DNA of 64,000 nucleotides, taken from contig JAJAYZ010000091.1 of NCBI GenBank assembly GCA_027118455.1, positions 416 to 64,415 of the forward strand, given 5' to 3'. Both the position numbers and the translations under genes were made by a program. Of the stretch, positions 30,515 to 64,000 are shown piece after piece (positions within the stretch are counted from its first letter, which is position 1; each line of letters begins with the position of its first letter). The stretch is from Actinomycetes bacterium. Lineage in GTDB: Bacteria; Actinomycetota; Actinomycetes; JAHEKZ01. The notes under the pieces were generated by a model that saw only the letters and a list, made by a program, of their open reading frames with translations, searched no databases and was not told the origin of the DNA.

Positions 30515-30609
30515 GGAGGTGTTCCTCATCTGGTGATGGGCGCGGTCTTCAAAGCTGTTGTAGGCGAGTATCTCGCCTAGGCGGGTTCGATTCCCGTCCA
30601 CCTCCGCCA
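30515..30609 (+). tRNA. selC: tRNA-Sec (UCA anticodon)
   Basis: 95 nt. GGAGGTG...CTTCAAAGC (anticodon TCA) ...long variable arm...GGTTCGATTCCCGTCCACCTCCGCCA. It lies between selD and selA as in sel operons. Confidence 0.85.
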
Positions 30610-30633
30610 CATCGCAGAAGTAGGGGAGGGACG

Positions 30634-46719: not shown

Positions 46720-47840
46720 ACGCGGTGCATTTTGCTGAGCAGGCGACTCTCGGGTGCCTCCTGCTCGACCCCGCTGCCGCAAGGCCGGTGGCGACGGTGT
46801 TACGCGCGGAGGACTTTGCCCATCCCTGGCACCGCGCGGTCTTCACCACCATCCGGGAACGCCACGTTGCTGGCGCCCCACTGGACGCGAAGATGGTGGG
46901 TCCTGCCCTCGTCGAACGACTGGGGCAGCGTAAGGCCGATCTCCCACGTGTCCTCGATCTGCTGCGTGCGGCGCCGATTCACCCCCAAACAGAGCGCTAC
47001 GCAGCGATGGTTCTCGAGGCTTCGCTGCGCCGCCAGGTCGCCTGCCATGGCGTCCTTCTAGAGGCAGCTGCTCTGTCCGCGTCGTTGTCGATGAAGAGTG
47101 GCCCAGTCACACGGGTCGCCGGTCTCGTCGACGCTGCGCTTAGGGACGCCGAACGTCGCTGGCTCATCGCCAGGGGCAGTCACTCGGATGCCGATGCCGC
47201 CGCGCAAACGGACCCATCGACTCGGCTCTTCGATACCGCGTTGGGAGCCGATCGGCTCCTGAGGGCTCATCCGCCGATCGATTCGACCGAGGCAATGCAA
47301 AACGAAGCGCACCTGGTTGCGGCCCTGGTCACACATCCCGCTGACGTCGCGACCACCGCCGCGTGGCTGCGACCAGAGGCGCTCACCGATCCGGCCTGGC
47401 GACCGGTATACGCCGCACTTGTCCAGGTGGCGGAGTCAGGCGAGCCCATCGACGTCGTGACGGTCAACTGGGAGGTGCGTCGCGCCTCCGCGCGGATGGG
47501 TCAAGGGCCGGGTACCCGAGAGCTCCGTGAGGCAGTCGACTCGGCCGCCGCGAGCGATCCCGGATACCTGAGTCGCGCTGTCGCCTCTGACCAGTTGCGG
47601 TCCACGGCTGCGCACGCTGCGGATGCCCTGCGTTCGTGTGCGAGCAACCCCGGCATTGACTTGGTCGACGTTCTGCACACCGGTCATCTGTTGACTAAGG
47701 CGCTGTGTGAGAAGGCGAACGTCCTTCCGGAACGGTCGTCTGGCAGTCCCCCGCAGAGACACCTGGCGGCGGTGCACGACCGTACCCAAACGCGGGACAT
47801 TGAGTCGATGCGTGGGGTCCTCGGGCCGGTGGCCGGATGA
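46716..47840 (+). CDS. DnaB-helicase N-terminal-domain protein (no ATPase domain)
   Basis: AEQATLGCLLLDPAAARPVATVLRAEDFAHPWHRAVFTTI resembles the DnaB N-terminal domain. Confidence 0.5.
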   Translation: MNAVHFAEQATLGCLLLDPAAARPVATVLRAEDFAHPWHRAVFTTIRERHVAGAPLDAKMVGPALVERLGQRKADLPRVLDLLRAAPIHPQTERYAAMVLEASLRRQVACHGVLLEAAALSASLSMKSGPVTRVAGLVDAALRDAERRWLIARGSHSDADAAAQTDPSTRLFDTALGADRLLRAHPPIDSTEAMQNEAHLVAALVTHPADVATTAAWLRPEALTDPAWRPVYAALVQVAESGEPIDVVTVNWEVRRASARMGQGPGTRELREAVDSAAASDPGYLSRAVASDQLRSTAAHAADALRSCASNPGIDLVDVLHTGHLLTKALCEKANVLPERSSGSPPQRHLAAVHDRTQTRDIESMRGVLGPVAG

Positions 47841-49675
47841 CTCCCGCACGCCGGTCTCCAGTTCGACCATCTGGCTCCTACGCGACGGGTTCCGGCATGG
47901 ATTACGCGAACTGGGGCCTCTCCGCACTTCTAGCCTTGTTGGCGTTCGCTTGTGTTCAGTGGGCAGGGGCTGCGCTGGCCGGTGTGGTGACTGGTCGAGG
48001 AGTTCCACGCGGCGGGATGCTGCCCGCGTTGGTGGCGGTCACGGATTTGCAGGATCCCTCGACAGCTTGGCCTGAGCCGGCGCAAGTGCCCGCGTGGATT
48101 CCGTACTGGGGCTGCACCCTGCTGGTGTGGATCGCCGTGGGAGCATTCGTCCTCCTCGGCAAGCACCTGTGGTGCCGCTTTCTGGTTCCGAGTTCGTCCG
48201 CAGTGGACCGCGTTCGGTCACTACCTGGGTTGGCGACACCGAGCGAGGCCGAGACTGCCTCGGGGCGCAAAGCCCTGCAACGTCGCGCAGCTGTCGCACG
48301 ACCGTCGCTGGTCGGGAAAACCGCTCCCACTGACGTCGGCTATCGGCTCGGTCGGGTGCGCGGCAAGGATCTGTGGTGCTCGGTCGAGGACTCGGCGTTG
48401 CTAGTCGGACCACCGCGCATGGGCAAGGGCCTTCACATCGTCATCCCATGGGTGGTCGACGCTCCGGGGTCGGTGGTGGCGACGTCGACGCGACCGGACA
48501 CGCTCGCGGTCGCCTTCCACGCCCGTGCCACACACGGCGAAGTCGCGGTCTTCGACCCACAACGGCTTGCAGGTCTGCCGGGCGGTCTGCGCTGGTCGCC
48601 GGTGCGCGGCTGTGAATCCCCTCAGACCGCTCTCGTCCGGGCGCGAGGACTGGGGTCCGGCGCCGGATTCGGCAAGACGGTGTCGGACTCAGACTTCTGG
48701 GCCGGACAAACCGAGACGGCGTTGCGCTGCCTCCTGCACGCCGCAGCTTTGGACGGTCGGCGAGCGGTCGACTTGTACCGGTGGTCGCTGAACCCCGCAC
48801 TGGCTGAAGACGCGGTCACGATTCTCACTCGTCACGCAGACGCTGCAACCGGCTGGGCGGACGCCCTGGAGGCGGCCGTGCATGCCGATCCGCGGACGCG
48901 CGACAGTGTCTGGCTCGGTGTGCGTCAGTCGCTCGCCGCACTCGCTGACCCCGACGTGCTGGATGCCGTCGATCCTGGCCCGGGTGAAGCCTTCGACCCG
49001 GTGGGCTTCTTGAAGAACTCCGGCACCCTGTTCCTTCTGGCGTCGTCGGTTGCGTCGTCGTCTTGCGCGCCGCTGGTGGCGGCCTTCGTCGAGGACATCA
49101 CCGAGACTGCACGGACCCTGGCCGCCCGCGCCACCGGTGCGCGGCTCGACCCGCCGCTCCTTCTTGCACTGGATGAGATCGCCAACCTGACCCCGCTTCC
49201 GTCCCTTCCGTCGTTGATGGCCGAGGGCGGCGGGTCGGGCATCACCACTCTGGCTGTGTTGCAATCACTCGCCCAGGCACGACACCGGTGGGGCGAGCAC
49301 GCTGCCGACGCGATCTGGGATGCCGCCACAGTCAAGCTCGTCCTCGGCGGACTGGCGAAACTGCGCGACCTCGACGACGTGTCTCGCCTACTGGGCGAGA
49401 TCGACGAACCAACCCAGACCCTCTCTCGCGGTCGAATGGGGGAACGCTCCTCGTCCACGAGCCTGCGCCAGATGCCGGTTATGCCGCCCTCAGTTCTGCG
49501 AACCCTGCCGTTCGGAACCGGTGTGCTGCTCCTGCGACACGCCCGCCCCGTCGTCATCGACCTTCAGGCATGGCCCGACCGACCAGACGCCGACCGACTG
49601 ATCGCGGGACGCACCGCCATCGAGGCCGCAACTGCAGCGAGCCCGCTTCCGAACTCGTTGGCCGAAGTCCAATGA
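47837..49675 (+). CDS. Type IV coupling protein (VirD4/TraD/TraG-like)
   Basis: N-terminal TM helices, P-loop LLVGPPRMGKG and a C-terminal TraM-recognition-like region. Confidence 0.65.
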   Translation: MTPARRSPVRPSGSYATGSGMDYANWGLSALLALLAFACVQWAGAALAGVVTGRGVPRGGMLPALVAVTDLQDPSTAWPEPAQVPAWIPYWGCTLLVWIAVGAFVLLGKHLWCRFLVPSSSAVDRVRSLPGLATPSEAETASGRKALQRRAAVARPSLVGKTAPTDVGYRLGRVRGKDLWCSVEDSALLVGPPRMGKGLHIVIPWVVDAPGSVVATSTRPDTLAVAFHARATHGEVAVFDPQRLAGLPGGLRWSPVRGCESPQTALVRARGLGSGAGFGKTVSDSDFWAGQTETALRCLLHAAALDGRRAVDLYRWSLNPALAEDAVTILTRHADAATGWADALEAAVHADPRTRDSVWLGVRQSLAALADPDVLDAVDPGPGEAFDPVGFLKNSGTLFLLASSVASSSCAPLVAAFVEDITETARTLAARATGARLDPPLLLALDEIANLTPLPSLPSLMAEGGGSGITTLAVLQSLAQARHRWGEHAADAIWDAATVKLVLGGLAKLRDLDDVSRLLGEIDEPTQTLSRGRMGERSSSTSLRQMPVMPPSVLRTLPFGTGVLLLRHARPVVIDLQAWPDRPDADRLIAGRTAIEAATAASPLPNSLAEVQ

Positions 49676-50877
49676 GCAAACTCGTGGGGTTCACTGTTCT
49701 GATCGTCGGCTTGATGGCCGTACCTGCCATCGCACTACTCGCCCTCATCGGACTAACCGCCAACGCGATCGCTTGCACGCAGTTCACGGGCGGGTCGCTG
49801 CGACCTTCAGCGCCAGTACCTGCGCAGGCAAAGTTGTGGATTGCCTTGGCGCAGTCGGCATGTCCGGACCTCCCAGGAGCGTGGATCGCTGCGGTCATGG
49901 CGCAGGAGTCGGGGTTCCGACCGAACGCGTACGCCGACGATGTCAACGGCGGAACGTGGGGGCTGTTGCAAATCAACGAGGGCATTTGGCGCGCCACTTA
50001 CGGAGCTGGTTGGAACGCCGACCGCAACCACAACGGTGTCTGGGATGTGAAAGACCCCGAGATCCACGCTGTCGTCGCCGGAAAGTACCTGTGCGCACGC
50101 CTTGATGGCGTACGTCGCATCCGTACCGAGCATCCCGACTGGGTGTCCACTCAAGACTTGACTGAGCTCGACGCACTCGTGGTCGCGCACAACGCGGGGG
50201 AGTCCCAGCTGGAGACATACCCATCGATCCCCAACGTCACAGCCGACTTCATCCGAACCGTTCGTCATCATGTCGTGGCATGGTCTGGACCGACAGCAAG
50301 TGGGTCAAGCGCCGTCGCTGCCCCTGACCAGCCGACGGTCGATGCTGCCTGCCTTGCGAGCTTGGGCCCGGCAAGCGGGATCGTCGTACCACCCGGCACC
50401 CCGGCTGACGTCGCGACCGCGGTTCGCACGTCGCTCGGCCTTGTCGGGTCTCGCTCCGGCTGGGCGGGGATGTGCGACCGTCTGGCCTGCCGGGCGTACG
50501 GATTCGACAACAGCGGCTACGCATCGGCCTCCGTGCACTGGGCGGCCATGGTTGCGTCCGACCGAGCCCACGTTGATGACCGGTGCCCACCGGTCGGGTC
50601 ATTTGTGTTCTGGTCCACCAGCGGTCCATACGGTCACGTCGCACTTGTCGTTCAATCCGACAGTGGCTGCGATCCCGACCAGATCAAGCTCGTCAGCAAC
50701 GACGTGCTGGACAGCCGCACCGGTTACGACGGCGGTGTGTATCTCGTAACGCTCACGCAGATCGAGTCGGGCTTCATGTCACGCACCGGTTATCTCGGCT
50801 GGTCGGATCCCGTCTGCGCGGGCACCCCGCTGCCATCAGCCGCGTCGAGGGCGCGGCGGGTCGCCAGGGCCGGCTGA
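49672..50877 (+). CDS. Secreted peptidoglycan hydrolase: lytic transglycosylase (SLT) N-domain plus NlpC/P60-CHAP-like C-domain
   Basis: Signal/TM, then the SLT motif AVMAQESGFRPNAYADD...GLLQINE. The C-terminal Cys-His region reads GMCDRLACRAYG...YGHVALVV. Confidence 0.65.
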   Translation: MSKLVGFTVLIVGLMAVPAIALLALIGLTANAIACTQFTGGSLRPSAPVPAQAKLWIALAQSACPDLPGAWIAAVMAQESGFRPNAYADDVNGGTWGLLQINEGIWRATYGAGWNADRNHNGVWDVKDPEIHAVVAGKYLCARLDGVRRIRTEHPDWVSTQDLTELDALVVAHNAGESQLETYPSIPNVTADFIRTVRHHVVAWSGPTASGSSAVAAPDQPTVDAACLASLGPASGIVVPPGTPADVATAVRTSLGLVGSRSGWAGMCDRLACRAYGFDNSGYASASVHWAAMVASDRAHVDDRCPPVGSFVFWSTSGPYGHVALVVQSDSGCDPDQIKLVSNDVLDSRTGYDGGVYLVTLTQIESGFMSRTGYLGWSDPVCAGTPLPSAASRARRVARAG

Positions 50878-50880
50878 TCC

Positions 50881-51861
50881 GTGGTGGGGGCTGCCTCGGT
50901 CGATCGAGTCGATCGACTCACGCAGTTGCATGAGCAACTCACCACTGCTGTGGATGAGCTCGCCAACAGTGACGCCTGGCGCCGCATGCTGGAGGTCGCC
51001 GCGCGGATGCCGACCTACAGCCCGTCTAACGTCTTGCTCATCGCCGTGCAGCGTCCGGAGGCCACGCGAGTTGCCGGGTTCGGTACCTGGAAGTCGCTCG
51101 GGCGCCACGTCTGCAAAGGCGAGAAAGGCATCGCGATTCTGGCGCCGTGCCTATACCGGGGCCGTGACAACGGGGAAGCCGATCGGGCGGTGTCGCGTGA
51201 GGAGCAGGCGAACGCACACGAGGAGGCGAAGCGTGAGCTGCGAGGGTTCCGGGTGGTGCACGTCTTCGATGTGAACCAGACCGAGGGCGATCCGTTGCCT
51301 GACGTTGCACCGGACCTGCTTATCGGAGCAGCCCCGGACAGGTTGTGGGAGCAACTCGTCCGTCTCGTCGAAGCGGATGGCTTCGTGGTGGAGCGCGGTG
51401 CGTGTGTGTGGGCCAACGGGTACACACGCTTCGACGACTGTGTCGTCCGGGTGCGCGACGACGTGGATCTAGCCCAGGCAGTGAAGACACTGGCGCACGA
51501 ACTCGGTCACATCCGAGCCGACCACGGGACACGTTTCGCCGACACGTACCACCGGTCCGTGGACTGCCGTGGTGTGGCCGAGATTGAGGCCGAATCCATC
51601 GCATACCTCGTGACTGCTGCGGCTGGGCTCGACGCGGGTGGTTACTCCGTGCCGTACGTCGCCGGCTGGTCCGGCGGAGATCCGGATCTGCTTCGCGCCA
51701 CCGCGACCAAGGTGCTAGCTACGGCGAGCAAGATTGACGAGGAGCTCGCCAGCACCGCGCGACCTGGGATCCCAGATGGGTCCACTGGTGTCCGCCGGCA
51801 CCCCATCCCGTTCCGTCAAGTTCCTGGGCGGAGCCCTGTGGGCCGGGCCGCCGGAGGCTGA
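50881..51861 (+). CDS. ArdC-like antirestriction protein (ssDNA-binding N-domain plus HExxH metalloprotease C-domain)
   Basis: YSPSNVLLIAVQRPEATRVAGFGTWKSLGRHVCKGEKGIAI matches the ArdC N-domain. The C-terminal motif is LAHELGHI. Confidence 0.65.
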   Translation: MVGAASVDRVDRLTQLHEQLTTAVDELANSDAWRRMLEVAARMPTYSPSNVLLIAVQRPEATRVAGFGTWKSLGRHVCKGEKGIAILAPCLYRGRDNGEADRAVSREEQANAHEEAKRELRGFRVVHVFDVNQTEGDPLPDVAPDLLIGAAPDRLWEQLVRLVEADGFVVERGACVWANGYTRFDDCVVRVRDDVDLAQAVKTLAHELGHIRADHGTRFADTYHRSVDCRGVAEIEAESIAYLVTAAAGLDAGGYSVPYVAGWSGGDPDLLRATATKVLATASKIDEELASTARPGIPDGSTGVRRHPIPFRQVPGRSPVGRAAGG

Positions 51862-54461: not shown

Positions 54462-55154
54462 TCAGCCCCCGTGAATAGACTCAAAGTGTTGAGCTGTCGA
54501 TGGTTGCCCCCGAAAGCGATCTCTCGCGTCGATTAGATCTGGCAATTCCTGGTTCGCCATCCGGTTCCACTGGTAGAACGACGGGTGTGGAACGTGGAGT
54601 GGGCTGGGCGTCAGATCGGGGATGGCCGCAGCAACCATGAGCTGCGCGAAGGTGCCTGCGGCCACTACTCGGCCGTCGGAACGAGTAGCGACACCCGAGA
54701 GCCAATTGCGGAGCCCGTCAACGAGAACCTCTGAAATCGCCCGTGTCACAGCTCCTCGCATGGACGAAATTGAGCGCGCCCTCGACCGGCGAACCTTTTC
54801 GATCAGAGTCCACTCGTCTTCTCCGAGGTCGGGGGCCTCGACGTCGACGAAGGCGGCTTCCTGCATGGGAACGTTGCTGACGTTCAATATGGCAATACGA
54901 CCGTCCCCAGCAGCGTGACTCTGCTGGACGAAGCGCCCGAGACTCCGGTCCTTTGGTTGAGCTGGCTGTAGGAAACGAAGGGCACTCCTGCCGGCGGTCC
55001 CAACGACGGGCAGTCCCTTCCTCAGTTCGTCGACATGGGGTGACTCGAAGACGAAAAGGAGTTCCACGGCGCGGTTGGGTGGCACGAGGTCGGGGACATG
55101 CCACCGCGCATAGATCCCGCTGCCGTCCTCGCTCAGATAATTGATGGCAGTCAT
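54462..55154 (-). CDS. Uracil-DNA glycosylase-superfamily protein
   Basis: LLFVFESPHVDELRKGLPVVGTAGRSALRFL follows the UDG family-4/5 motif-A pattern (hydrophobic-FVGEAPG..E...G.PFVG.AG..L). Confidence 0.5.
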   Translation of the reverse strand: MTAINYLSEDGSGIYARWHVPDLVPPNRAVELLFVFESPHVDELRKGLPVVGTAGRSALRFLQPAQPKDRSLGRFVQQSHAAGDGRIAILNVSNVPMQEAAFVDVEAPDLGEDEWTLIEKVRRSRARSISSMRGAVTRAISEVLVDGLRNWLSGVATRSDGRVVAAGTFAQLMVAAAIPDLTPSPLHVPHPSFYQWNRMANQELPDLIDARDRFRGQPSTAQHFESIHGG

Positions 55155-55355
55155 GTCAGATCCGTTTGTAGGGGCACGTTGCGGATCCGATTGTTGCGCG
55201 GCGGCCGCTATCGGGCGAGTCGAGCTCTCTGCGTCTTTCCCGCCGCCTGCCGTCGTGGGTTGAGCGTGGGCCTAGCGTCGGTGTGTTGGGGTGCCTCGCT
55301 GTGTGGGTGGCGAGCACGGCGCGGCCTCACAGTAGATCGTCGCGTGAGGTGCTCC

Positions 55356-56263
55356 ATGTCCACCACATCGCGGCTGTTGCCGTTCCAGCCGATGGCGATG
55401 ACTGCTGCGCAGCTCGCGACCTTCTCGTGCCTTGCCCGGTATGCCGGGCACACCCACGAGCTGTACTGCTACCAGCTGCGTCTCTGGTTCCAGTGGTGTG
55501 AAGGCAACGGGCTGGATCCGTTGGTCGGGATCCAACGCGCTCACGTTGAGCTGTACATTCGCGGTCTGGGCGAGGCGGGGCTCATGGCGTCCTCGACCAA
55601 CACGATGATGCACGGAGTCCGCGGGTACTTCCGGTTCGCCCACATCGACGGCCTGATCCCAGCCGACCCCGCCGTCTACGCGCGGCTTTCGCAGGTGCAC
55701 AGCGACGAGTCGTGGACCCATGGCCTAGACCGGTTTGAGCTGATCTGCTTCCTCCAAGTCGCCCAGACCACCACCGTGCACCACGGCGCCCTGGCCTCCC
55801 TGCTGGGAATCAACGCGCTGCGAGCCTCGGAGGCGGTAGCGGTCCGCATCGAGGACTACGCCGAGACCCTGCGCGCGACCGGGTCCTGCACCTGGTGGGC
55901 AAGGGCGACAAACCCGCCTCCATGCCGTTGACCGTCCCCGTCCTGCGCGTCCTAGAGGCCTGCCGCAGTGAGCGGACCACCGGCCCGTTGGTTCGGCGGC
56001 CCAAATCGGGCGCCGATCGACCACCGCGACGCCTATCGGATGGTCACGGGGTCGCGAACGCCGCATGGGTTCCCCGACACATCAGCCCAATAGCTGCCTC
56101 ATCCGGCGATCACCAGCCCACTCGACGTCGGCGTTCCGCTCCGAGACGCCCAGAACCTCGCCCGTCACGCCGACCATGAACCACCGAGCACTACGACCGT
56201 GCCCGCGACAACCTCGACCGCCAGGGAGCCCACTTCCTCACCGCCTACGTCGCCGGGGTCTAA
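55356..56263 (+). pseudogene. XerC/XerD-like tyrosine recombinase, disrupted by at least three frameshifts
   Basis: The core-binding N-domain is intact. The catalytic domain is spread over three frames: LHLVGKGDKPASMP (box I) in a second frame, RHISP... in another, and TTEHYDRARDNLDRQGAHFLTAYVAGV-TAA (catalytic Tyr) in a third. Confidence 0.7.
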
Positions 56264-56364
56264 CCGACTCGGCGGGTACATCAACTTCGCCCAGATTGAT
56301 GTATCAGCAACGTCCTTGGAACGCGCTCCGTCGACCCGACCTTAAGCCGTACGCGCGACGCATC

Positions 56365-58278
56365 TCAACCGATGCGAACGAGTGGAACGCCACCGCGTGC
56401 AAGCTCGTCGTAGATGTCTTGGATAGGACTCTGCGAACCGCGTTGGTCGCACTGCGTGAAGATCAGTCTTTCGGCAGCGCGTGAGACCCCAACGAAGAAG
56501 GCCATGGTGGAGTCGATGGTCTCTCTCGCATGTGCCCACCATTGGTCGCCGTCGAGCCCGACGAAGAAGACCGTGTGGTACTCCAGCCCCTTGCTACGGT
56601 GGATGGTGAGCAGGGGGACGGCGTCTTCCTCGATGAAGGCACCAGCTACTTGGTCCCATGCGTCCGCGTCCGCGATCACGGCCCCGAGGCGGAGCTTGAA
56701 CGCATCCAGGGTGATGTCTAGGTCCTCAGGTCGGTCGGTGAAGACTCGCTTGTGAGCGAGGTCGTCCAGCTGCACGAACTCAGTCAGCAGGTCCGTCAGA
56801 TCGTCGGTCAGTTCTTTCACGCGTTCAGGGGTCGGTGACGCCACAATGTGATTGTCGAGGAACCTAGCTGCGAACCACGACCGTAGTTGGACGAGGAAAG
56901 CCGCGAGCGAGTCGTCGGCGCGGCTTCCGACCTCGCGGTTGAGTTCTTCTGGGATGAACTGAGCCAGGATGCCTACGACGTCGCGCCATGCTCCGGGTTG
57001 TCCCCCTCGCGACGCACCGAGGCGAATGAGCCCCACGAGCAGCCTTATCAGTTCGTCCTTGAGCAGGTCCTGGAGACGAACCTTTCCGATGAGCGCGTCG
57101 TCGTTGCGTAGCTTGAGCTGTTGCTTGGCAAGGGAGCTCGCAAGAGCCGGCTCCAGGTCAGCGACCTTCTGGCGAGCGATGAGGGCGTATTTGGACGCCG
57201 GACGACCCGATTGCTCGATGTCAGCGGCAATCCACGCCGCGAGGGTGTCGGCCTCGAGCGTGGTGGTTGAGAACGACCAGATCGCTGTCGGGCTCTCCCC
57301 GAGAGTTGCGGGAACCTGTGAGATCTGGCGTTGTGCTTGCGGGTGGAGAAGCTCCGCGAACCGATGTTGTAGGTCGACGAGTTGCTGGGTGGAGCGAAAG
57401 TTCCAGTTCAGTTCGAAGGGGGAGGCACTGAAGTCGTGCTCGAACTGGCTGAATGCGTCGTCGAGCGCGCCGGCCCATCCCATGATGCGCTGTTTGCGGT
57501 CTCCGACCACGGTGACGATGGTTTGAGAGCCACCGAACACCGAGTGGAGGAAGGAGTACTGCGTGTAGGTCGTGTCCTGGAACTCGTCGACGAACACGTA
57601 CGGGTAGGTAGCGAGCAGTGCACGTCTGAGCTGGGGATTTGTCCGGATCAGCAGCTCTGCCAGACGGTTGAGCATGACGAAGTCGACCGTGGGTACCTCG
57701 TGAGCGAGGTACTTCTGCGCCCACCAGCTGAGCACTGCGTATTCAGCAGGAGTGGTTGTAGCACCGAGTTCAGAGGGAAGCTGAGTCGGTCCGACCATGT
57801 CCGAGATGAAGGTGCCGCCCTTGATCGCGTTAAGCGCCGACTGCAACCCTGGGTCGGCGCTGGCAGCGAGGTTGTCTAGGAAGTCGCGCACCTCCCTGAC
57901 GCTTGAGAACCCGACCCTGTAGGGCCTCTTCATTGCCCAGGTCACTGGGAGCAGGTCCTTGAACCGGTCGACGAGGGACTTGGTGAAGGCGTCGAAGGTC
58001 ATCGAGGTGAAACGGTCGGCATGCTCGGGGATTCGCCCCCAGACCCGTCGCCGCAGGTTCGCCGCAGCATCGCGCTTGAAGGAGATTGCCAGGATCTGCT
58101 GGGGTGGCCGGCAGATGCCCGTTTCGAGGAGATAGCTTGCCCTTTGCGCGAGGAACTCTGATTTGCCGGCGCCCGGGCCGGCTGTGACGCTGGAAGTGTT
58201 CGCTCGTAGGGCATCCCACGCCGCCGGCTCCAGATCGTCGATGTCGCGTGGTCGCCACTCGGCTGGGTCAGTCCTCAC
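56365..58278 (-). CDS. UvrD/Rep-family helicase (GajB-like)
   Basis: Motif I SVTAGPGAGKSEFLAQR and UvrD-like helicase motifs. The GTG start overlaps the upstream OLD-family stop (GTGA). The longest ORF start lies at 58374. Confidence 0.7.
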   Translation of the reverse strand: MRTDPAEWRPRDIDDLEPAAWDALRANTSSVTAGPGAGKSEFLAQRASYLLETGICRPPQQILAISFKRDAAANLRRRVWGRIPEHADRFTSMTFDAFTKSLVDRFKDLLPVTWAMKRPYRVGFSSVREVRDFLDNLAASADPGLQSALNAIKGGTFISDMVGPTQLPSELGATTTPAEYAVLSWWAQKYLAHEVPTVDFVMLNRLAELLIRTNPQLRRALLATYPYVFVDEFQDTTYTQYSFLHSVFGGSQTIVTVVGDRKQRIMGWAGALDDAFSQFEHDFSASPFELNWNFRSTQQLVDLQHRFAELLHPQAQRQISQVPATLGESPTAIWSFSTTTLEADTLAAWIAADIEQSGRPASKYALIARQKVADLEPALASSLAKQQLKLRNDDALIGKVRLQDLLKDELIRLLVGLIRLGASRGGQPGAWRDVVGILAQFIPEELNREVGSRADDSLAAFLVQLRSWFAARFLDNHIVASPTPERVKELTDDLTDLLTEFVQLDDLAHKRVFTDRPEDLDITLDAFKLRLGAVIADADAWDQVAGAFIEEDAVPLLTIHRSKGLEYHTVFFVGLDGDQWWAHARETIDSTMAFFVGVSRAAERLIFTQCDQRGSQSPIQDIYDELARGGVPLVRIG

Positions 58279-60298
58279 GCTGGATCGACCGCCTTGGCGA
58301 TGGCGTCGAGCAGCCTTCCCAGCCGCTCTGGCGGCCTGGCTAAGCCAGAAGCACTGACTTGGTTGAGGGCGCACAAGTGAGTGCCGGGCTTCGAGTGGGT
58401 GAGAAAGAGGTACCTGTACCAGCGCAGGTCCTCAAGCTTGTCGTCCGTAGCCCAGATCGGAACATCCGGCCTGACCTTGGGCTGGCCGAGCACGGCATCG
58501 CGAGGATCGCCCTCGCTACTCGGTCCCTTGGCGCCCGGCTCAAGGTTTGTCGTGTAGGCATCCCTGAACGTCATGAGAAGCGCCATGTCGAGGTCGAGTG
58601 GGGTGGAGAAGAAGATGTTCCACTTCTCAAGATGGTTGAGCCAAGCGACGAGTTGGTCCTGGTCGAGGCCGTCGATGTAGTCTTTGGAAGTGAAGCCTTC
58701 GATACCTTCAAACGGGTCGTAGCCATTCGCGGCCAGCTGTTCGCAGACATCGCGGATTCGGCCCTCGCCGCCGCCAGCACGTCCCCAGTCGAGGTCGAGG
58801 AGCGTGGCGTAGGGAATATCGAGTTGAGAGAGAAGGCGCCAGAAGTGGTTGGTGTGCCGTCCGCCGAGCGGCACGACAGCGACGAAGGATTGGTCGATGT
58901 GCATGCCTCGACCGGCCGCCAACTTAGGCAGAACCAGTTCCTCAGACGCTCCCTCGCCGAGCACTACGAACCTGGCAAAGTACAGTTCCGGGTGCGCACG
59001 GACGGCTTCCCGGATGTATTTTCCGGCCTCGGTGGAGTCGTCGGGCAGGACGATCTCTCGAACCTTGGACGTCTTCGTGGACTCGTCGAGACGAAGGTGT
59101 CGGATCTTCTCTGGCTCGATGCGCGCGACGGCGCTGGCTGAGTGACTTGAGATGACAGCCTGGGCTCGGCCGCTCGTGGTTACGTCGAGAAGTTGCTGGA
59201 CGACGCGGGAGAGGAAGTATGGGGCGAGGTTGTTCTCGGGCTCCTCCAGCGCCAGCAGGGTCAGGGACGGGAGGTTTTTATTTGACAGGTCGAACTCGTC
59301 GTCGTGGTCACCGGCGGCGATTGCCGCTTCGATGTCAAGGATTGCGGCCGTCAACGCGATGTAGAGCAACGACTGCTGACCATCACTGAGCTCCTGCGCC
59401 GGGCGGGTTCTTCCTGCAGGGGAAGGCTCGAAGATCAGCTCGGCGCTGGACACCAGCACGCTGACGTCGCGATTGATCGGCTCGAAGGACGGCTTCTGGT
59501 CGGCGACCGCATGATGGAGTTGTTGCCAACGACTGGAGATGGCCTTCGTGACCGCGTCGACAACAGGCTCGTCCTTGAACTTGTCAGTGAGCTCCTCGGC
59601 TGCCTCGCTGACGTGGGTACGGAAGGGCTCTGACCACTGGCTGGCGCGCCAGACCCGACCGCGGAGGAAGGTGCTGACCTGCCGGGCGCCATCACGGGTC
59701 GCAGGGACGTAGACCATCTGGATGCGATTGCGGTCCGAGGCGCGAAGTTCGACCCAGCTCTCTCCATATTCTTCTTCGAACGTATGAACGACCCGCCGAC
59801 TCTCCTCGACCGTGCCAACCACCGGGCCATCCGCTGACCAGACGGCTTCGAGCACGATGCGCAGCTTGAGCTGGCCGTCTTCATCCGCAGACATCTGTGC
59901 GAAGAACTCCGGCACGGCGCCGGGTGGGGCGTCATCTTCTTCCGCAGCGAGCTCAGGGAAGGCGAAGACTGCCTCGATGGTTAGGGCCCGCTCGTCGGGC
60001 TCTTCCTGTTCGGCGTCGGGAACGTGGAAGTCCTCGACCCGCACCTGGCGCTGGTCCGAGACGACGCTGAACAGTCGCAGTAGAGCCTGGCAGACAGCTG
60101 TCTTCCCACTCGCGTTGGCGCCGAGCATCGCAGTGAGCTGCGCATCGAACCGGATCGTCGTCGGCTCCGGCCCGAAGCACTGGAAGTTGGTGACGGTCAG
60201 ACGCTCTAGGAACAACTCGGCCTCCGACCTTCGTGCCCAGTCACCCAGGCCAGTTATGTGAACGATACGAAATCTGACATGACTACGTCGGGTCGACA
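58275..60298 (-). CDS. OLD-family ATP-dependent endonuclease: ABC-type ATPase plus TOPRIM (GajA-like, class 2 OLD)
   Basis: Walker A LGANASGKTAVCQALLRLF. The TOPRIM glutamate motif VVLGEGASEELVLPKLAA and the DxD motif LLDLDWG lie in the C-terminal domain. Confidence 0.7.
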
Positions 60299-60435
60299 TC
60301 CGAAGTCGCAGCTTCGTCTTCGGTTTCGGAGTCAGATCGGTTGCAAGAAGGTTGCCGCCTCGGTCAGGCGCAGCGCCACGCAAAAGTCGCCGAAATTCGT
60401 GAGGTCGAACCTCGGTCCGGTGGCATCCTTGGACC

Positions 60436-60654
60436 GTGACTGACTACGCCACTGACCCGAAGGGGTATGAAGAACGCCTGCTGGCGAAACTTCAGCCTTC
60501 TCGGGTTCGTTCGACCCTGGCGTTCACCGCCCTGTTCCAGCTCACTCACGAAATGTTGAAGTCGATGGTCCTCGACGACGTGAAGAGCTTCTACGGGTAC
60601 ATCAACCTCGGCGGAGACGTCCGATGGTTCCCCGAAGGAGGCGAGGTCGAGTAG
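60436..60654 (+). CDS. Hypothetical protein; same frame as 60667..61023 across a single TAG
   Basis: 72-aa ORF. The TAG at 60652-60654 is followed in frame by a 118-aa ORF. Confidence 0.3.
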   Translation: MTDYATDPKGYEERLLAKLQPSRVRSTLAFTALFQLTHEMLKSMVLDDVKSFYGYINLGGDVRWFPEGGEVE

Positions 60655-60666
60655 CAACGGAAGGTC

Positions 60667-61023
60667 TTGAACCTTCACACGAACAGATTCACCGCCTCCC
60701 TGCTGTGGCTCCAGCAGATGGATGCGCTCACTGCTGAGCCGGCGGCGCGCCTGCATGACATCTACGAACACCGGCATGACCTCACCCATGAGCTCGCGAA
60801 GTACCTGGTGGACCCGAACCTTGAACCCAACTTCGACCTGTTCATCGAGGCCCTGAAGACGCTGAAGGCGCTGTCGCGGTTCTGGACCGAGGTCGAAGCC
60901 GGCTACGGCACCTTCGAGGATTTCCCCGACCTCGACCTCGACGAGGTCAAGAACGGCCGGATGATTCTGATCGAGCTATGCATTAGCGCGTACGGGCACG
61001 GTCTCACCAACGCCGACACTTGA
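60667..61023 (+). CDS. Hypothetical protein
   Basis: 118 aa, alpha-helical, no recognised domain. Confidence 0.35.
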   Translation: MNLHTNRFTASLLWLQQMDALTAEPAARLHDIYEHRHDLTHELAKYLVDPNLEPNFDLFIEALKTLKALSRFWTEVEAGYGTFEDFPDLDLDEVKNGRMILIELCISAYGHGLTNADT

Positions 61024-61357: not shown

Positions 61358-63604
61358 CTATGTGTGTCCCGCCCGGTCCCTATGGAGCGAGTCGATCAAC
61401 TCCCGCGTCCTCTCTTGAACACTGCTCCGGATCTCGATCGACCGGATGCTTGCCGACACCGGGAGGCGGGTTGACGCCAGACGGCCGGCGAACTCCTTTG
61501 ACCGCGAGTTCCAGAGGTTGAGGTTGAACTGAAGCGGTCGGTCGGGGATCGGCGTGGGGTCCCATGTCATCCGTTCGTAGACGACCGCGCCGTCCACGAG
61601 CCAGCGGATCGCGTTCGGCTGCCAGTCGATCTCGTAGGTATGGAAGTCACTGGCGGCATCGAACCCGAGATCGACCAGAGTCGGCGTGCCGCGGTAGCCG
61701 TACTCGAGCTTCGTGCCCTCGGGACCAGGGTTGTAGAACACGTTGATGAGCATCTTGCTGGTGTCCTTGCCGAGAAACTCGATATCGATCTCTTGGCGTG
61801 GCCCGTTTCGATGAAGGAACATGCCTGTCACGAGTCCATGCACGGCCGGAGGACAGAGGTCAGCCTTGAACGTTCCGTAGCGGTAGGCGGATCGGGTGGC
61901 GATCGCTCCGGACGTGAGTCCACGGACCGCGGTCCGCTCCTGACGGAGGGTGAGCAGGGCGCGGTCTCCGCGCTGACTGACGTTCGCTGGCGTAAACAGC
62001 GCCATGTTGCTTGGGAACGTGTCGTCGCGGAGTATCCAGGCTGCGTCGTCGAGTCCGGCGTCAAAGGCCCAGTCAACGCGTTCAAATGACCTGGGTGAAT
62101 CGGGAATCGTGCCGACGGTGATGCCGTCCCATGCGCGGGTTGGATTCACGATCCACGGCCCACTGTCGCGCTTCAGATCGGTCGATTTGCGAGCGCCTTG
62201 CGTAAGCGACCGGATGCCAACGGTGCGGACCCCGATGTCGTTGTCGGTCGGATAGGGCAGCGCCGGATAGTCGATGCCGAGGAACTCGCTAAGGGCCGCC
62301 CACTTGTCTGTCATATCCGGCGTAAGTGTGAGGGCGCGATCGTGAAGGGCAGGAGGCAATGGACGATTCGCGGACGTGAGGATGAATCTCGTGCCGGGAT
62401 TCGTCTTCGCCGCCTGCCGCAGAGCTTCCGCCGAAAGCGAGGTGATGTTGACGTAGGCGTTGAACAGGCAACCTCGATCACCGCGGAGGAGGGCTTGCTC
62501 TTCTGCCGTGGGCAAGTGTTCAAGGTCGTTGATGCACGTGTATCCGAGCATGGATAGGGCGGTACTGAGCGCGGTCAAGCCGGTCCCGGGTTCACCGACC
62601 GCTAGAACTGGGCCGGTCAAGTGTTTGGTTGCTGGGACGAGTGGCTTCTCGCGCGTGACGACCCCGACTTGGGACAGCACGGGCAGGACAGAGTACGAGT
62701 TGGTCGTCGGCTCGTCGATGCGCTGCTCGATGAGCGGGCGTGCCGCGATGAACGCACGCACTCGACCGAACTGCATGTTGAGCCACAAGTCGACTGGGCC
62801 GTATACGGGTAACTGGTCGAGCAGTTTTCGAGCGCCGATGCGGCTCAGGACATATCCGGAGGCTTCCCAGATCCCCGGGTGCCGTAGTCGCCGAGCGCCC
62901 GTTCCCTCGTTGGCGGCTGAGATGCTGCCGACTTCGTTGAATGCTAAGAACAGGAGTTCGAAATCTGGCTCGTCGGCCTCTTGGTGCGTGAGCGACGACC
63001 AGGTCGTTTCAAGATCGCGAGCGAAGCCGAATGTCATGAACACGTCGTCTTCAAGCACGAGCGCGTTGGAGACATCACCGTGGGCTATTAGTTTCCAGAC
63101 CTCGATGTGAGATAGGGCCACAGCGATTTCTTGCTTCGTCATCTCGATCTCACGGGCCCGCGTCTCACTGTTGATCTGAAGAAGCGGGTTTGGGTCGACC
63201 GTGAGCTGGTCGGCCAGCGTGAATCGCGGGATTAACACTGCGGGGCCTGGCATCGACTCCAAGTACCTTGCGTCAATGGCAGAGAATCGTCGGGCAAGCG
63301 TCGAGAGGCGTTCTCCGTGCCGGCCTCGAAAGCGATCGAGCTCTCGTCGTACCCGGCGCCAACGGTCGGGCCGCCGGTCGAGATTGATCACATAGATACG
63401 ACGCAAGGCAGCGGCCTCGTCGCTGCGGCAAAACACGGCTGCGCGTCGGCGCCAGTCGAATATCCGAAGGCGAAGTCGTCCGTGGTGCAGGAGGCTCTGC
63501 CGACAGTCCACGAACGCGAGTCGGTTCATGGACGGTCTCTCTTCTCCTCGCCGCGAATCCAGTTCCTCCAGTTGCGTCCGTCGCCTCGATAGTCGAGAGG
63601 CCAC
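61358..63604 (-). CDS. Multidomain carbohydrate-active enzyme: glycosyltransferase family 25-like N-domain, P-loop (sulfotransferase-like) middle region, glycoside hydrolase family 16 C-domain
   Basis: N-terminal IYVINLDRRPDRW is the GT25 (LPS glycosyltransferase) signature. A middle P-loop reads VGEPGTGLTAL. The C-terminal EIDIEFLGKD is the GH16 ExDxxE catalytic motif. Confidence 0.55.
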   Translation of the reverse strand: MASRLSRRRTQLEELDSRRGEERPSMNRLAFVDCRQSLLHHGRLRLRIFDWRRRAAVFCRSDEAAALRRIYVINLDRRPDRWRRVRRELDRFRGRHGERLSTLARRFSAIDARYLESMPGPAVLIPRFTLADQLTVDPNPLLQINSETRAREIEMTKQEIAVALSHIEVWKLIAHGDVSNALVLEDDVFMTFGFARDLETTWSSLTHQEADEPDFELLFLAFNEVGSISAANEGTGARRLRHPGIWEASGYVLSRIGARKLLDQLPVYGPVDLWLNMQFGRVRAFIAARPLIEQRIDEPTTNSYSVLPVLSQVGVVTREKPLVPATKHLTGPVLAVGEPGTGLTALSTALSMLGYTCINDLEHLPTAEEQALLRGDRGCLFNAYVNITSLSAEALRQAAKTNPGTRFILTSANRPLPPALHDRALTLTPDMTDKWAALSEFLGIDYPALPYPTDNDIGVRTVGIRSLTQGARKSTDLKRDSGPWIVNPTRAWDGITVGTIPDSPRSFERVDWAFDAGLDDAAWILRDDTFPSNMALFTPANVSQRGDRALLTLRQERTAVRGLTSGAIATRSAYRYGTFKADLCPPAVHGLVTGMFLHRNGPRQEIDIEFLGKDTSKMLINVFYNPGPEGTKLEYGYRGTPTLVDLGFDAASDFHTYEIDWQPNAIRWLVDGAVVYERMTWDPTPIPDRPLQFNLNLWNSRSKEFAGRLASTRLPVSASIRSIEIRSSVQERTRELIDSLHRDRAGHT

Positions 63605-64000
63605 TTGCTGACGGCCACCGTCTCCCAGCCCATGAGGAACTCGAAATCCCGCGCTGCACCATCTGCCTCCAGCTCGACGGCGTGCGCCGCGAGACTGGCC
63701 GTGAGGTTGCCCGGCCCGGTTACTGACTGGATGTCACGAGCCGTCTGCCTCGTGGCCAGCAAGAGCGTCGTCGAACGCTCCAGAGCCCTGGCGATCACCG
63801 GGTGCCCAGGTCCAGCGACAAGCGGATTGTTGTTGACGTAGAAGATTCGCTGCGCACCTGTCCGGTCCGCCAGTGCTTCCGCCACGTCAATCATCGAGTT
63901 CGAGGAAATGTCGAAACACAGCGCCTGAAGGAGTAGCCGACCGGTTCGCATCAATGGGTCGATGTCCGCACCCTGGTACTCATCGTCGGCGTCGACGTAC
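63526..64000 (-). CDS. Hypothetical protein, 5' end possibly beyond the window edge
   Basis: ORF 63526..63954 has open reading frame continuing to position 64000. It overlaps the start region of the neighbouring gene, so one of the two starts is mis-set. Confidence 0.25.
   Translation of the reverse strand, partial: YVDADDEYQGADIDPLMRTGRLLLQALCFDISSNSMIDVAEALADRTGAQRIFYVNNNPLVAGPGHPVIARALERSTTLLLATRQTARDIQSVTGPGNLTASLAAHAVELEADGAARDFEFLMGWETVAVSKWPLDYRGDGRNWRNWIRGEEKRDRP

Follow-up and report, generated by a model that had tools for sequence, protein, structure and literature searches.

The locus described here lies at one end of a 64,000-nucleotide stretch of contig JAJAYZ010000091.1 from an Actinomycetes bacterium (assembly GCA_027118455.1; this whole stretch is referred to as the window). 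It raises the question of whether a single open reading frame really joins a family-25 glycosyltransferase (GT25), a P-loop and a family-16 glycoside hydrolase (GH16), and what such a protein might do next to an anti-phage defence system. The open reading frame is present at the proposed coordinates, 61358..63604, but on the minus strand, with 748 aa when called mechanically from a GTG at 63604. The first 25 codons of this frame (GTG 63604 to ATG 63529) fall within the gene upstream, and the ATG at 63529 is most likely the true start, giving a protein of 723 aa. Close homologues are also 723 aa long and open with MN... at the same alignment column, the ATG overlaps the upstream stop codon (as ATGA) and is preceded by the purine-rich GAGGAGAAGAGAG, and the 723-aa product is called by gene callers on 13 independent contigs. 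Motif residue numbers are counted from this ATG. All three motifs on which the original prediction was based, YVINLDRRPDRW, GEPGTGLTAL and EIDIEFLG (the last from residue 580), can be found in the protein (Table 1).

A fusion of this kind could potentially arise when errors in sequencing or assembly merge two or three neighbouring genes, or could mark a decaying pseudogene. The comparative data already refute both possibilities, which we regard as having a negligible probability. In addition to the 13 contigs with an identical 723-aa product, 79 of 80 reference-genome loci have a single, unbroken and frameshift-free ORF with full-length profile coverage, which together exclude the joining of adjacent genes by a sequencing error. 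The same pair of Pfam domains is found in >120 database proteins of identical architecture (51–95% identity), and each of the three regions of the protein has invariant catalytic motifs. Structure prediction, which had been suggested as a check, gave a confident full-length AlphaFold model (pLDDT 82, pTM 0.72). The one split copy among the 80 genome loci is that of Virgibacillus litoralis (L060), and the copy on Rhizorhabdus plasmid pSWIT02 looks IS-disrupted.

Table 1. Features of the three-domain gene and its surroundings (positions in the window; percentages are conservation across 81 diverse homologues).
Feature	Position	Strand	Remarks
Three-domain protein CDS	61358..63529	minus	723 aa from ATG 63529; stop 61358-61360
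GT25 glycosyltransferase domain	62789..63400	minus	residues 44-247; Pfam PF01755, 58.6 bits
GT25 N-motif YVINLDRRPDRW	63359-63394	minus	residues 46-57
GT25 DXD-type metal / nucleotide-sugar motif E160-D161-D162 (in LVLEDD)	63044..63052	minus	E100 D100 D98 %
Strongly conserved loop after GT25 core, LIEQRIDEPTTNSYSVLPVLSQVGVVTREKPLV	62636..62734	minus	residues 266-298; pLDDT 44-66
Truncated sulfotransferase-fold domain	62222..62614	minus	residues 306-436; probably non-catalytic
Walker-A / PSB-loop look-alike GEPGTGLTAL	62567..62596	minus	residues 312-321; Leu replaces essential Lys/Arg
FNAYVN motif, conserved, sulfotransferase-like domain	62447-62464	minus	
DKW...YP..YP motif, conserved, sulfotransferase-like domain	62249-62308	minus	
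GH16 beta-jelly-roll domain, lichenase/XTH (ExDxE) type	61421..62092	minus	residues 480-703; PF00722
GH16 catalytic motif E580-I-D582-I-E584	61778..61792	minus	nucleophile, helper Asp, acid/base; 81 homologues
Upstream partner, GT32-like retaining DXD glycosyltransferase, 3' part	63526..64000	minus	last 157/255 codons; cut at window end
GajA	58275-60299		PADLOC E 1e-223
GajB	56365-58278		UvrD domains

The assignment of the N-terminal domain to GT25 is borne out by a PF01755 match well above threshold (cut-off 24 bits, E 1e-15) and by the match of the family profile to the catalytic domain of COLGALT1 (E 1.3e-15), with weaker matches to solved bacterial GT25 proteins (8xlz, E 5e-5). The acidic DXD-type motif is kept, its LVLEDD aligning with LvfEDD of COLGALT1. 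Across the 81 homologues, which were used for the conservation percentages of all motifs, the N-motif is conserved as I98 N98 L100 D93 R100...R100 W92 (%). Known GT25 enzymes, among them LgtB, Lic2A and LpsA of LOS synthesis, the procollagen galactosyltransferase COLGALT1 and mimivirus R655, have the same N-motif (INLxRxxDR) and the same LxxEDD. The protein differs from these enzymes in the fusion of its GT25 domain to two further domains, in being paired with a GT32-like gene at ~90% of loci, and in a family-specific invariant loop (QRxDxxSTNSYSxLPxL) after the GT25 core. This loop is modelled with low confidence, yet is extremely conserved (Q100 R98 D90 S97 N100 Y100 S100 P98 L98 G100 in 81 homologues). 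It may close as a lid over the bound donor, or bind a partner or the acceptor.

The central domain had been described as a P-loop reminiscent of the PAPS-binding sites of sulfotransferases. The resemblance to sulfotransferases holds, as the domain has the sulfotransferase alpha/beta fold, but of a functional loop only the glycine skeleton remains. Sulfotransfer_4 (PF17784) scores 20.7 bits against the full protein, which is below its cut-off of 22.8, and 25.1 bits when the segment is scored by itself. Matches at E < 0.1 were obtained for 29 of 30 homologues. Compared with the Sulfotransfer_4 enzymes Schistosoma SULT-OR (5TIV/4MUA) and Streptomyces Cpz8 (9KF2), the N-terminal loop, the central strand and the C-terminal DxW...FL..P..YP are collinear, but only ~110 of 212–275 residues are kept, the Arg/Lys of the PSB loop is replaced by Gly/Leu, and RD..W..S is missing. 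Cpz8, from caprazamycin biosynthesis, is also the second-best structural neighbour of this domain. The PSB loop of the family, GlpRTGTTS, corresponds to GxxG(S/T)GLT in the homologues, where the pattern is conserved as G100-x-x-G66-S/T-G95-L87-T/S (%); the skeleton GxxxxG-L-T/S is thus retained, while the residues between vary freely. The position of the Walker lysine or PSB arginine is occupied by Leu in 87% of the homologues and otherwise by V, T, Q, A, I or M, with Lys or Arg in 0 of 81. A Walker A motif of P-loop NTPases (GxxxxGK[ST]) can therefore be ruled out, since its invariant Lys is never present. The segment RD..W..S, which in the family follows the ILT strand and binds the 3'-phosphate, is likewise absent, the region after FILT being unconserved in the 81 homologues. 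As the PSB Lys/Arg, the 3'-phosphate motif and ~70 core residues of the fold are missing, a working PAPS site is judged unlikely. On these sequence features, the domain should be regarded as a probable pseudo-enzyme or ligand-binding spacer, in which the retained glycine loop may bind some nucleotide.

The C-terminal GH16 assignment is confirmed by a PF00722 score of 97.1 bits (cut-off 22, E 1e-27), a match to the Bacillus lichenase 1gbg (E 2e-21), a predicted jelly-roll fold similar to those of lichenases 3wvj, 3i4i and 1gbg (Foldseek TM 0.82–0.86), and an invariant Glu-Asp-Glu centre (E100 I100 D100 I83 E100 % in 81 homologues). The domain shares 26–30% identity and the beta-jelly-roll fold with the lichenases of B. 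licheniformis (1GBG) and B. subtilis (BglS), along with an identical catalytic strand (EIDIEFLGKDT) and the LGFDAA and FHTYxxDWxPNxIxWxVDG motifs. The score for the BglS equivalog model (NCBIfam NF047856) is 106.5 bits against a cut-off of 300, and the domain is thus a relative of BglS rather than its orthologue. The lichenases are small, secreted, single-domain enzymes, whereas this GH16 domain forms the C-terminus of a predicted cytoplasmic 723-aa protein, and a conserved 9-residue insertion (NPG...E.G.RG.P) lies in its cleft region. Neither a signal peptide nor a membrane segment was found in this protein or in its partner (maximum KD19 hydrophobicity 1.1–1.2), and both are predicted to be cytoplasmic. 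We know of no precedent for a GH16 enzyme that is active in the cytoplasm.

The enzyme is not a lone oddity but one member of a conserved two-gene operon, the other being a GT32-like transferase that the original prediction had missed. The stop codon of this upstream partner overlaps the ATG of the three-domain gene, an arrangement that indicates translational coupling. A complete copy of the partner gene was found on L001 (6628-7395). The partner matches PF04488 (26.5 bits, cut-off 23) and, by profile comparison, Och1 (E 2.9e-5); it contains an invariant D101-x-D103 in GGxYxDxDD, and weakly resembles the protein-glycosylating toxin domains YeGT, PaTox and SetA. A full-length partner lies upstream at 72 of 80 genome loci (~90%), and the pairwise identities of the two proteins correlate with r = 0.90 across 2,628 pairs; by this measure, the partner and the three-domain protein co-evolve. 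No natural fusion of the two was found among 120 homologues. A third gene, encoding an O-carbamoyltransferase, is found at 11 of 82 loci (~13%) and, on the Citrobacter IncC plasmid as well as at five loci in chromosomes, overlaps the stop codon of the three-domain gene by 4 nt; no remnant of it was found downstream of the gene in the window. A scan for promoters and terminators around the operon was uninformative, as the sites were no more numerous than in shuffles. The cassette contains no flippase, polymerase or membrane component, and no sugar-nucleotide, export or regulatory genes are conserved with it; the conserved genes number two or three in all.

A search of 185,579 species returned 301 relatives in ~18 phyla, and among 1.84 billion cluster representatives just 359 contain the distinctive middle module, always in full-length proteins and at a constant position. 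The nearest relatives of the gene, which is of an actinobacterial type, are in Dehalococcoidia MAGs (71–74% identity). Near-identical architecture, at 38–74% identity, is found in Actinobacteria, Chloroflexota, CPR, Bacillota, Bacteroidota and Enterobacteria, which have unrelated envelopes; this argues for a universal substrate and against a lineage-specific surface glycan. The full-length gene is carried by nine plasmids, including a Citrobacter IncC plasmid, on which it adjoins arr-3/dfrA27, and a Klebsiella IncFII plasmid; the cassette also occurs in variable islands. On the latter plasmid, pKmfe267-2 of K. michiganensis, the leading region (ssb-parB-psiB-psiA...) contains the pair in the same orientation as its other genes. 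A recombinase gene is present on each side of the pair, which may therefore be a mere inserted module. The majority of loci are on chromosomes and lack conjugation genes in their vicinity. No match to the gene was found in 50,697 phage genomes (tblastn), nor in 5,426 complete E. coli genomes when the Citrobacter copy was used as a megablast query. Judged by this distribution, the cassette is rare, patchy and horizontally transferred.

In the window, the surrounding element encodes a T4SS coupling protein, ArdC, an SLT/CHAP hydrolase and an integrase-like ORF. A TrwC relaxase gene is located immediately past the window end, and the cassette adjoins TrwC in four actinobacterial lineages. The cassette in the window is cargo of this integrative conjugative element (ICE), placed between Gabija and the relaxase. 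The Gabija-like pair had been recognised correctly: GajA and GajB are identified by the matches listed in Table 1. They occupy the same cargo region as the cassette but have no component in common with it, and since GajA neighbours the cassette at just 3 of 82 loci (the others being in Terrimesophilobacter and a Phycisphaerales MAG), membership of the cassette in Gabija is ruled out. Small ORFs on the opposite strand (60436-61023) separate the two in the window; they are confined to the window's own lineage and do not travel with the cassette.

No entry in PADLOC-DB v2 matched the three-domain protein or its partner at E <= 1, and the small flanking ORFs also had no match. Among 1,116 neighbouring ORFs, a set that is approximate given that ORFs were picked length-greedily, repeated occurrence was limited to the pair itself; a GC3-weighted choice overlooked genuine genes where islands had a lower GC content. 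The 122 nearest neighbours that were sampled, taken as raw counts, include GajA/GajB, Avs2, HmaC, TmtA, PDC-S06, type I R-M, AbiLi, Old/AriA, LmuB, a DRT-like RT, TIR_2, integrases and transposases, some of the PADLOC matches being generic ATPases. SIR2 and Shedu were observed at other loci. Defence, toxin-antitoxin or mobile-element genes lie within 10 kb in 8 of 9 gene-called contexts, a raw proportion, and one well-assembled context (L096) contains housekeeping genes exclusively. Other repeat neighbours are ordinary (response regulators, SDRs, GGDEF and NRPS-like genes). A literature search on the GT25/GH16 pair, or on glycosyltransferases, GH16 enzymes or carbamoyltransferases in defence contexts, returned nothing relevant.

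From these features, we infer donor sugars, an acceptor, a GH16 processing step and a biological role as follows. The three-domain protein would be the large subunit of a horizontally mobile glycosylation cassette, whose two cytoplasmic products are coupled in translation. The small one would be a GT32-like retaining (alpha-forming) DXD glycosyltransferase, and the large one an inverting (beta-forming) GT25 enzyme joined, through a truncated and probably non-catalytic sulfotransferase-fold spacer, to a GH16 domain with its catalytic centre intact. Both transferases would build a short mixed alpha/beta glycan from common nucleotide sugars, on an acceptor conserved across bacteria. The GH16 domain would then process this product, either cleaving it from its primer or transferring or cyclising it in the manner of retaining GH16 transglycosylases, and at about one locus in eight the coupled O-carbamoyltransferase would decorate it. 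Processing of the cassette's own product is proposed because the GH16 domain has no other obvious cytoplasmic substrate, and the step is a conjecture given the lack of a known precedent for its location. Cyclic beta-1,2-glucan synthase (Cgs; GT84, cyclase and GH94) offers a functional analogy only: one polypeptide polymerises a glycan, and its own GH-type domain processes the product. The CAZy families of Cgs are wholly different, and Cgs, a large membrane protein, serves a housekeeping pathway, whereas the present protein is soluble and belongs to an accessory module that mobile elements carry.

The role of such a glycan could be sought in the envelope, as the original prediction did in suggesting modification of a phage receptor. 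Soluble transferases at the inner face of the membrane would act on lipid-linked precursors, be it of the LPS/LOS core, teichoic acid, arabinogalactan or capsule units, and the altered surface glycan would block phage adsorption, much like seroconversion modules on mobile elements. The characterised bacterial GT25 enzymes LgtB, Lic2A and LpsA decorate LOS/LPS from the cytoplasmic side, GT32 enzymes extend glycans (compare the Och1 match of the partner), an Arg-rich helix at the N-terminus of the three-domain protein could bind membranes, and carriage by mobile elements fits the logic of lysogenic conversion. In M. abscessus, a Bac_transf/GT4/flippase polysaccharide cluster lies 4 kb from the cassette, which is also compatible with plain envelope glycan synthesis, but such genes are almost never neighbours elsewhere. 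Furthermore, a cassette with no flippase, polymerase or membrane component, and with tightly conserved architecture across unrelated envelopes, fits this reading poorly, and a cytoplasmic GH16 domain would be left with no role; we consider it unlikely. The gtrABC seroconversion modules are, like the cassette, glycosyltransferase cargo of mobile elements that could shield a host from phages. Gtr systems consist of membrane proteins that use Und-P-glucose, act in the periplasm and are lineage-restricted, whereas the cassette is soluble, includes a GH16 domain and is found in ~18 phyla.

If the cassette instead made a small oligosaccharide or glycoside, decorated and used as a natural product, signal or osmolyte, and were not directly linked to conflict with phages or mobile elements, this would account for the coupled O-carbamoyltransferase, which is of the NodU/CmcH/TobZ type typical of glycoside and Nod-factor tailoring. 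NRPS-like AMP-binding/PCP genes and SDRs lie near the pair at 4–5 loci, and the structural likeness to Cpz8 points the same way. The conserved gene set, on the other hand, is very small for such a pathway, the cassette mostly stands isolated among unrelated island genes, and the sulfotransferase-like domain has no catalytic residues, so that this reading is rated as quite improbable. A slightly slimmer chance is given to early expression in a new recipient, where the cassette would glycosylate a host defence component or an incoming DNA/protein complex, an anti-defence function by which a conjugative element would establish itself more easily. Leading regions are hotspots of anti-defence genes (PMC11541004), which makes the position of the pair on pKmfe267-2 suggestive, as do its proximity to ArdC in the window and to TrwC, which it adjoins in four actinobacterial ICEs. 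The resemblance of the partner to protein-glycosylating toxin domains fits as well, and the solved structure closest to the GT25 domain is that of COLGALT1, an enzyme whose acceptor is the side chain of a protein. Anti-defence genes, however, are usually small, whereas the cassette comprises ~1,000 codons of enzymes; most loci are chromosomal and away from conjugation genes, the gene is absent from the phage genomes searched, and the pKmfe267-2 pair, bracketed by recombinase genes, may simply have been inserted there.

Since the cassette is accessory cargo of an ICE, of conjugative plasmids and of defence-rich variable islands, a role in conflict between host, phage and mobile elements is the most likely one. 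This role rests on association, whereas the anatomy, conservation, operon coupling, mobility and neighbourhoods of the cassette were observed directly. Our preferred reading, held with slightly less than even confidence, is a self-contained mobile module for building and processing a glycan that is used in such conflict, a protective function being the leading guess. The more specific proposal that the pair, with or without the carbamoyltransferase, is a new glycosylation-based conflict system (anti-phage defence or conjugative counter-defence) directed at a universal target (a protein, nucleotide or lipid-linked precursor) is more doubtful.

The three folds are textbook ones, and the sequences are already in RefSeq as ‘family 16 glycosylhydrolase’. 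What appears undescribed is the fixed GT25/pseudo-sulfotransferase/GH16 architecture with its GT32-like partner, the predicted cytoplasmic GH16 domain, and the rare spread across many phyla on plasmids, ICEs and variable islands. The enterobacterial homologues make the cassette directly testable. Even with a mundane role, the three-domain protein would offer a natural system in which to study the cooperation of a transferase with a retaining glycosidase in a single chain, and the reason why a degenerate sulfotransferase domain is retained. If the cassette affects phage infection or plasmid establishment, glycan chemistry would join the bacterial conflict repertoire, with a bearing on the spread of resistance plasmids given its position beside arr-3/dfrA27 in Citrobacter. 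Should the conflict reading be true, no earlier system of this kind would have consisted of carbohydrate-active enzymes, and this one is already carried on clinical IncC and IncFII plasmids.

The protein with glycosyltransferase family 25 (GT25), sulfotransferase-like and glycoside hydrolase family 16 (GH16) parts is encoded, as originally predicted, by a single ORF at 61358-63604, which lies on the minus strand and runs for 748 codons from a GTG. All three motifs quoted in the original prediction are found in it, and the plus strand of the interval is riddled with stops. Translation very probably begins at an ATG 25 codons inside this ORF, at 63529, giving a 723-aa product. This ATG overlaps the stop codon of the upstream gene as ATGA, with GAGGAGAAGAGAG before it, and the nearest database homologues (95-70% identical; 712-725 aa) have their N-terminus (MN...) in the same alignment column. 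The 723-aa product was called independently on 13 metagenomic contigs. In one-genome-per-species references, the ORF is unbroken in 79 of 80 loci, with profile coverage from end to end; the only split copy is in Virgibacillus litoralis (L060 9995-12093). The three-domain fusion, judged from these sequences, is no artefact.

Both terminal domain assignments held. The GT25 domain scores 58.6 bits in Pfam (cut-off 24), and a profile built from the protein's first 300 residues matches the catalytic domain of procollagen galactosyltransferase COLGALT1 (E 1.3e-15), mimivirus R655 and solved bacterial GT25 proteins. The GH16 domain scores 97.1 bits in Pfam (cut-off 22) and 106 bits against the NCBIfam lichenase model, far under its equivalog cut-off. 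Bacillus lichenases match at E values of 1e-21 to 1e-19, their catalytic strand EIDIEFLGKDT aligning residue for residue, and lichenases superpose at TM 0.82-0.86 on the GH16 part of an AlphaFold model of the protein (whole-protein pLDDT 82, pTM 0.72). Across 81 homologues from about 18 phyla, the GT25 motifs (INLDR..RW; E-D-D at 100/100/98%) and the GH16 centre P-R-Q-E-I-D-I-E (E/D/E at 100%) are near-invariant. The three-domain architecture is fixed; its GT25 and GH16 centres are intact and its middle one is degenerate.

For the middle domain, a PAPS-type P-loop had been proposed, of which the family likeness and the glycine skeleton stood and the ligand-binding residues did not. Against Sulfotransfer_4 (threshold 22.8), the middle segment reaches 25.1 bits when scored by itself and 20.7 bits within the full protein, and 29 of 30 homologues match the family at E < 0.1. 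Only about 110 of 212-275 residues align, and the stretch linking the 'ILT' strand to the C-terminal 'DKW' helix has lost ~70 residues, so that the domain reads as the stump of a sulfotransferase fold. In the 81 homologues, the loop keeps G-x-x-x-x-G-L-(T/S) alone; the position of the Walker lysine or of the arginine of the phosphosulfate-binding loop holds Leu in 87% and Lys or Arg in none, and the 3'-phosphate-binding segment shows no conservation. The 'PAPS P-loop' thus appears to be a relic, which makes the protein less exotic in one respect. The motifs FxAYVN, DKW and YP..YP are invariant in the same homologues, which suggests selection for some non-sulfotransferase role, with scaffolding or ligand binding the obvious candidates. 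An exhaustive HMM search with the middle region against 1.84 billion cluster representatives returned only 359 matches (113 at E <= 1e-10). The module occupies residues ~255-485 in every full-length match, implying that it is used in no other architecture, and ordinary sulfotransferase-like proteins of ~200-240 aa make up the weak tail. A 33-residue loop after the GT25 core, QRxDxxSTNSYSxLPxL...G, is a flexible element, near-invariant across about 18 phyla and modelled at pLDDT 44-66. Donor-binding lids are common in GT-A enzymes, and the simplest reading is that the loop may be such a lid; a partner interface and an acceptor element are candidate alternatives.

The protein proved not to be a lone fusion enzyme and instead is half of a conserved mobile two-gene cassette. 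Its partner gene lies directly upstream on the same strand and encodes a ~255-aa product, of which the window holds the last 157 codons only; the whole gene is found on a contig of the same lineage (L001). Of 80 loci, 72 have the full-length partner, two have remnants of it and five lack it, while in one a contig end truncates it. Its product scores above the Pfam threshold for the GT32-type 'Gly_transf_sug' DXD region and carries strongly conserved motifs (QFWD, HPAMxSDYFR, GGxYxDxDD, NNNP, TGPGN, RNWR). Its best solved relative is Och1 (GT32; E 2.9e-5), and it resembles the toxin glycosyltransferase domains of YeGT, PaTox and SetA more weakly. Across 2,628 locus pairs, the pairwise identities of the two proteins are closely correlated (r = 0.90), which indicates that they move and diverge as one unit. 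On sequence grounds, the partner is obligate and translationally coupled. Neither has a signal peptide or a hydrophobic segment, and both are predicted to be cytoplasmic.

An O-carbamoyltransferase gene (Carbam_trans_N/C) is attached to the pair in 11 of 82 non-redundant loci, and none was found in the window. It overlaps the stop codon of the fusion gene by 4 nt in five chromosomal loci and a Citrobacter plasmid, and is convergent with it in the Dehalococcoidia relatives. Nonomuraea sp. (L017) has, besides the canonical pair, a second partner-like GT32 gene of divergent sequence (13689-14777, minus strand). It lies 1.5 kb downstream of the pair and adjoins a carbamoyltransferase (14609-16045); this arrangement could be a duplicate of the module or an alternative form of it. 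Signs of decay are seen in a few lineages: besides the split Virgibacillus copy, the partner is an N-terminal remnant running into the fusion ORF in Streptomyces (L044 9681-12070) and has shrunk to its C-terminal half in Amycolatopsis (L022 9564-9950), while on Rhizorhabdus plasmid pSWIT02 (L099 9001-11097) only part of the fusion gene is annotated and an IS4 insertion lies close by.

Features of the window and its continuation
Feature	Position	Strand	Remark
tmRNA gene	2806-3177		tag ANTSRTDLTLAA
1,049-aa protein	26137-29283	+	LysM repeats, C-terminal BTAD transcriptional-activator domain
tRNA-Sec, selA, selB	30515-33650		chromosomal; tRNA-Sec directly upstream
Transposase	34846-36123	-	rve family
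Two large ORFs	42893-45352, 45238-46716		no Pfam match
DnaB-like gene	46716-47837		ICE
TraG/VirD4 coupling protein	47837-49672		ICE
SLT/CHAP wall hydrolase	49288-50874		ICE
ArdC anti-restriction	50881-51858		ICE
Integrase-like ORF	55098-55931		N-terminal SAM-like domain of tyrosine recombinases only
Downstream other-frame fragments	55895-56179, 56065-56484		no Pfam match
GajB	56365-58278		UvrD domains; 4-nt overlap with GajA
GajA	58275-60299		PADLOC E 1e-223
Two small ORFs (72 and 118 aa)	60436-61023	+	convergent with fusion gene; no family match; window's own lineage alone
Fusion gene	61358-63529	-	
Conserved loop (residues 266-298)	62636-62734	-	
Partner, 3' part	63526-64000	-	
Two small genes, then TrwC relaxase	past window end		TrwC at L001 2124-5921

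The right-hand third of the window, from about 46.7 kb on, is by its sequence an integrative conjugative element (ICE), which makes the cassette ICE cargo. The catalytic domain of its integrase-like ORF (region 55098-56500) appears to be disrupted or lost, given the match to the N-terminal domain alone and the Pfam-negative fragments. The cassette stands beside a Gabija pair, as originally described, and this pair is complete. Further left, tRNA-Sec, selA and selB indicate that the host uses selenocysteine. GC content falls to 0.58-0.59 across 36-42 kb, perhaps at the edge of the ICE or in a further island.

A pattern scan of 185,579 species genomes found at least 301 relatives, a lower bound set by the pattern; the gene is rare. 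The best 80 of the 301 share 38-74% full-length identity and are spread over Actinomycetota, Chloroflexota, Bacillota, Patescibacteria, Omnitrophota, Acidobacteriota, Bacteroidota, Planctomycetota, Campylobacterota, Fusobacteriota, Nitrospirota, Gemmatimonadota, Alpha-, Beta-, Gamma- and Deltaproteobacteria, and others. Those closest to the window protein are Dehalococcoidia MAGs (71-74%), above most Actinobacteria, which is strong evidence for horizontal transfer. Full-length copies are carried by nine plasmids, including a conjugative IncC plasmid (Citrobacter freundii), a conjugative IncFII plasmid (Klebsiella michiganensis), four Aliarcobacter plasmids, one with a Shedu nuclease and an R-M S subunit near the pair, and Rhizorhabdus wittichii pSWIT02, with an Abi gene nearby; no carrier was found among 50,697 phage genomes. 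K. michiganensis pKmfe267-2 (L098 7600-12861) carries the pair in its leading region, behind ssb-parB-psiB-psiA. Two ~200-aa tyrosine recombinase/site-specific integrase genes flank the pair together with a GFA-family gene, so that it resembles a discrete cassette mobilised by recombinases. The clinical multiresistance IncC plasmid pCf164_LMB-1 of C. freundii (L092 896-11860) has a three-gene version, with the carbamoyltransferase followed by IS21, a DUF262 protein and the resistance cassettes arr-3/dfrA27.

Nearly nothing recurs beside the pair among 1,116 neighbour ORFs clustered from 82 loci (heuristic ORF calls), a hallmark of variable islands. The recurring neighbours are carbamoyltransferase (11 loci), Type I HsdM and HsdR (5 each), IS21 (4), GajA and TrwC (3 each), and some ordinary genes. 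In 122 sampled nearest neighbours we found 130 different Pfam families, integrases and transposases, and, within the 25 most frequent families among the PADLOC matches listed, strong matches to GajA/GajB, Avs2 (6e-270), HmaC, TmtA, PDC-S06, type I R-M, AbiLi, Old/AriA, LmuB, DRT-like RT and TIR_2. Nine contexts have proper gene calls: the window lineage (Gabija, TrwC); Homoserinimonas (KAP/STAND NTPase, CoiA nuclease, large helicase); Sphaerisporangium (HsdM, IS elements); M. abscessus (WXG100 nuclease toxin, RelA_SpoT, Lsr2); Modestobacter (Hypoth_Ymh, SIR2_2, TrwC); M. arabiense (in order, TrwC, pair, excisionase, integrase, Fic); Pseudoclavibacter (SIR2_2, Schlafen-like gene, IS481 on both sides); an ENA contig (BrnTA, PIN, PLD, serine recombinase); and one JGI MAG (housekeeping genes only). 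The neighbourhoods are variable and, in raw counts taken without a background comparison, defence-rich.

We found no account of the cassette in the literature. Acting together, the retaining GT32-like and inverting GT25 transferases would assemble a short glycan of mixed linkage, on an acceptor that all carrier bacteria share. The GH16 domain would process this product by release, transglycosylation or cyclisation, since it would otherwise be without substrate in the cytoplasm, and the cassette may serve in conflicts that involve phages or other mobile elements. The collagen disaccharide Glc-alpha-1,2-Gal-beta-Hyl is made by GT25 beta-transfer and then retaining alpha-transfer, the two chemistries that the cassette pairs. 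By this analogy, and given the partner's weak likeness to protein-glycosylating toxins, a protein acceptor is conceivable.

Were a surface glycan or phage receptor modified instead, the diversity of the hosts' envelopes and the lack of membrane components in the cassette would be hard to accommodate. An anti-defence or establishment function would suit the adjacency to TrwC and the place of the pair in the leading region of the Klebsiella plasmid, such regions being hotspots of anti-defence genes (PMC11541004), but many loci are chromosomal and the size of the cassette also speaks against it. The carbamoyltransferase could point to a decorated small glycoside, although other genes of such a pathway are absent.

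As a glycan-based conflict system, the cassette is a reasonable candidate. The fusion protein is already in databases, uncharacterised and under a generic name, and it combines known enzyme kinds anew. The finding is real and exceeds what had originally been recognised: the protein belongs to what is, by its sequence, a conserved mobile two-gene glycosylation unit.
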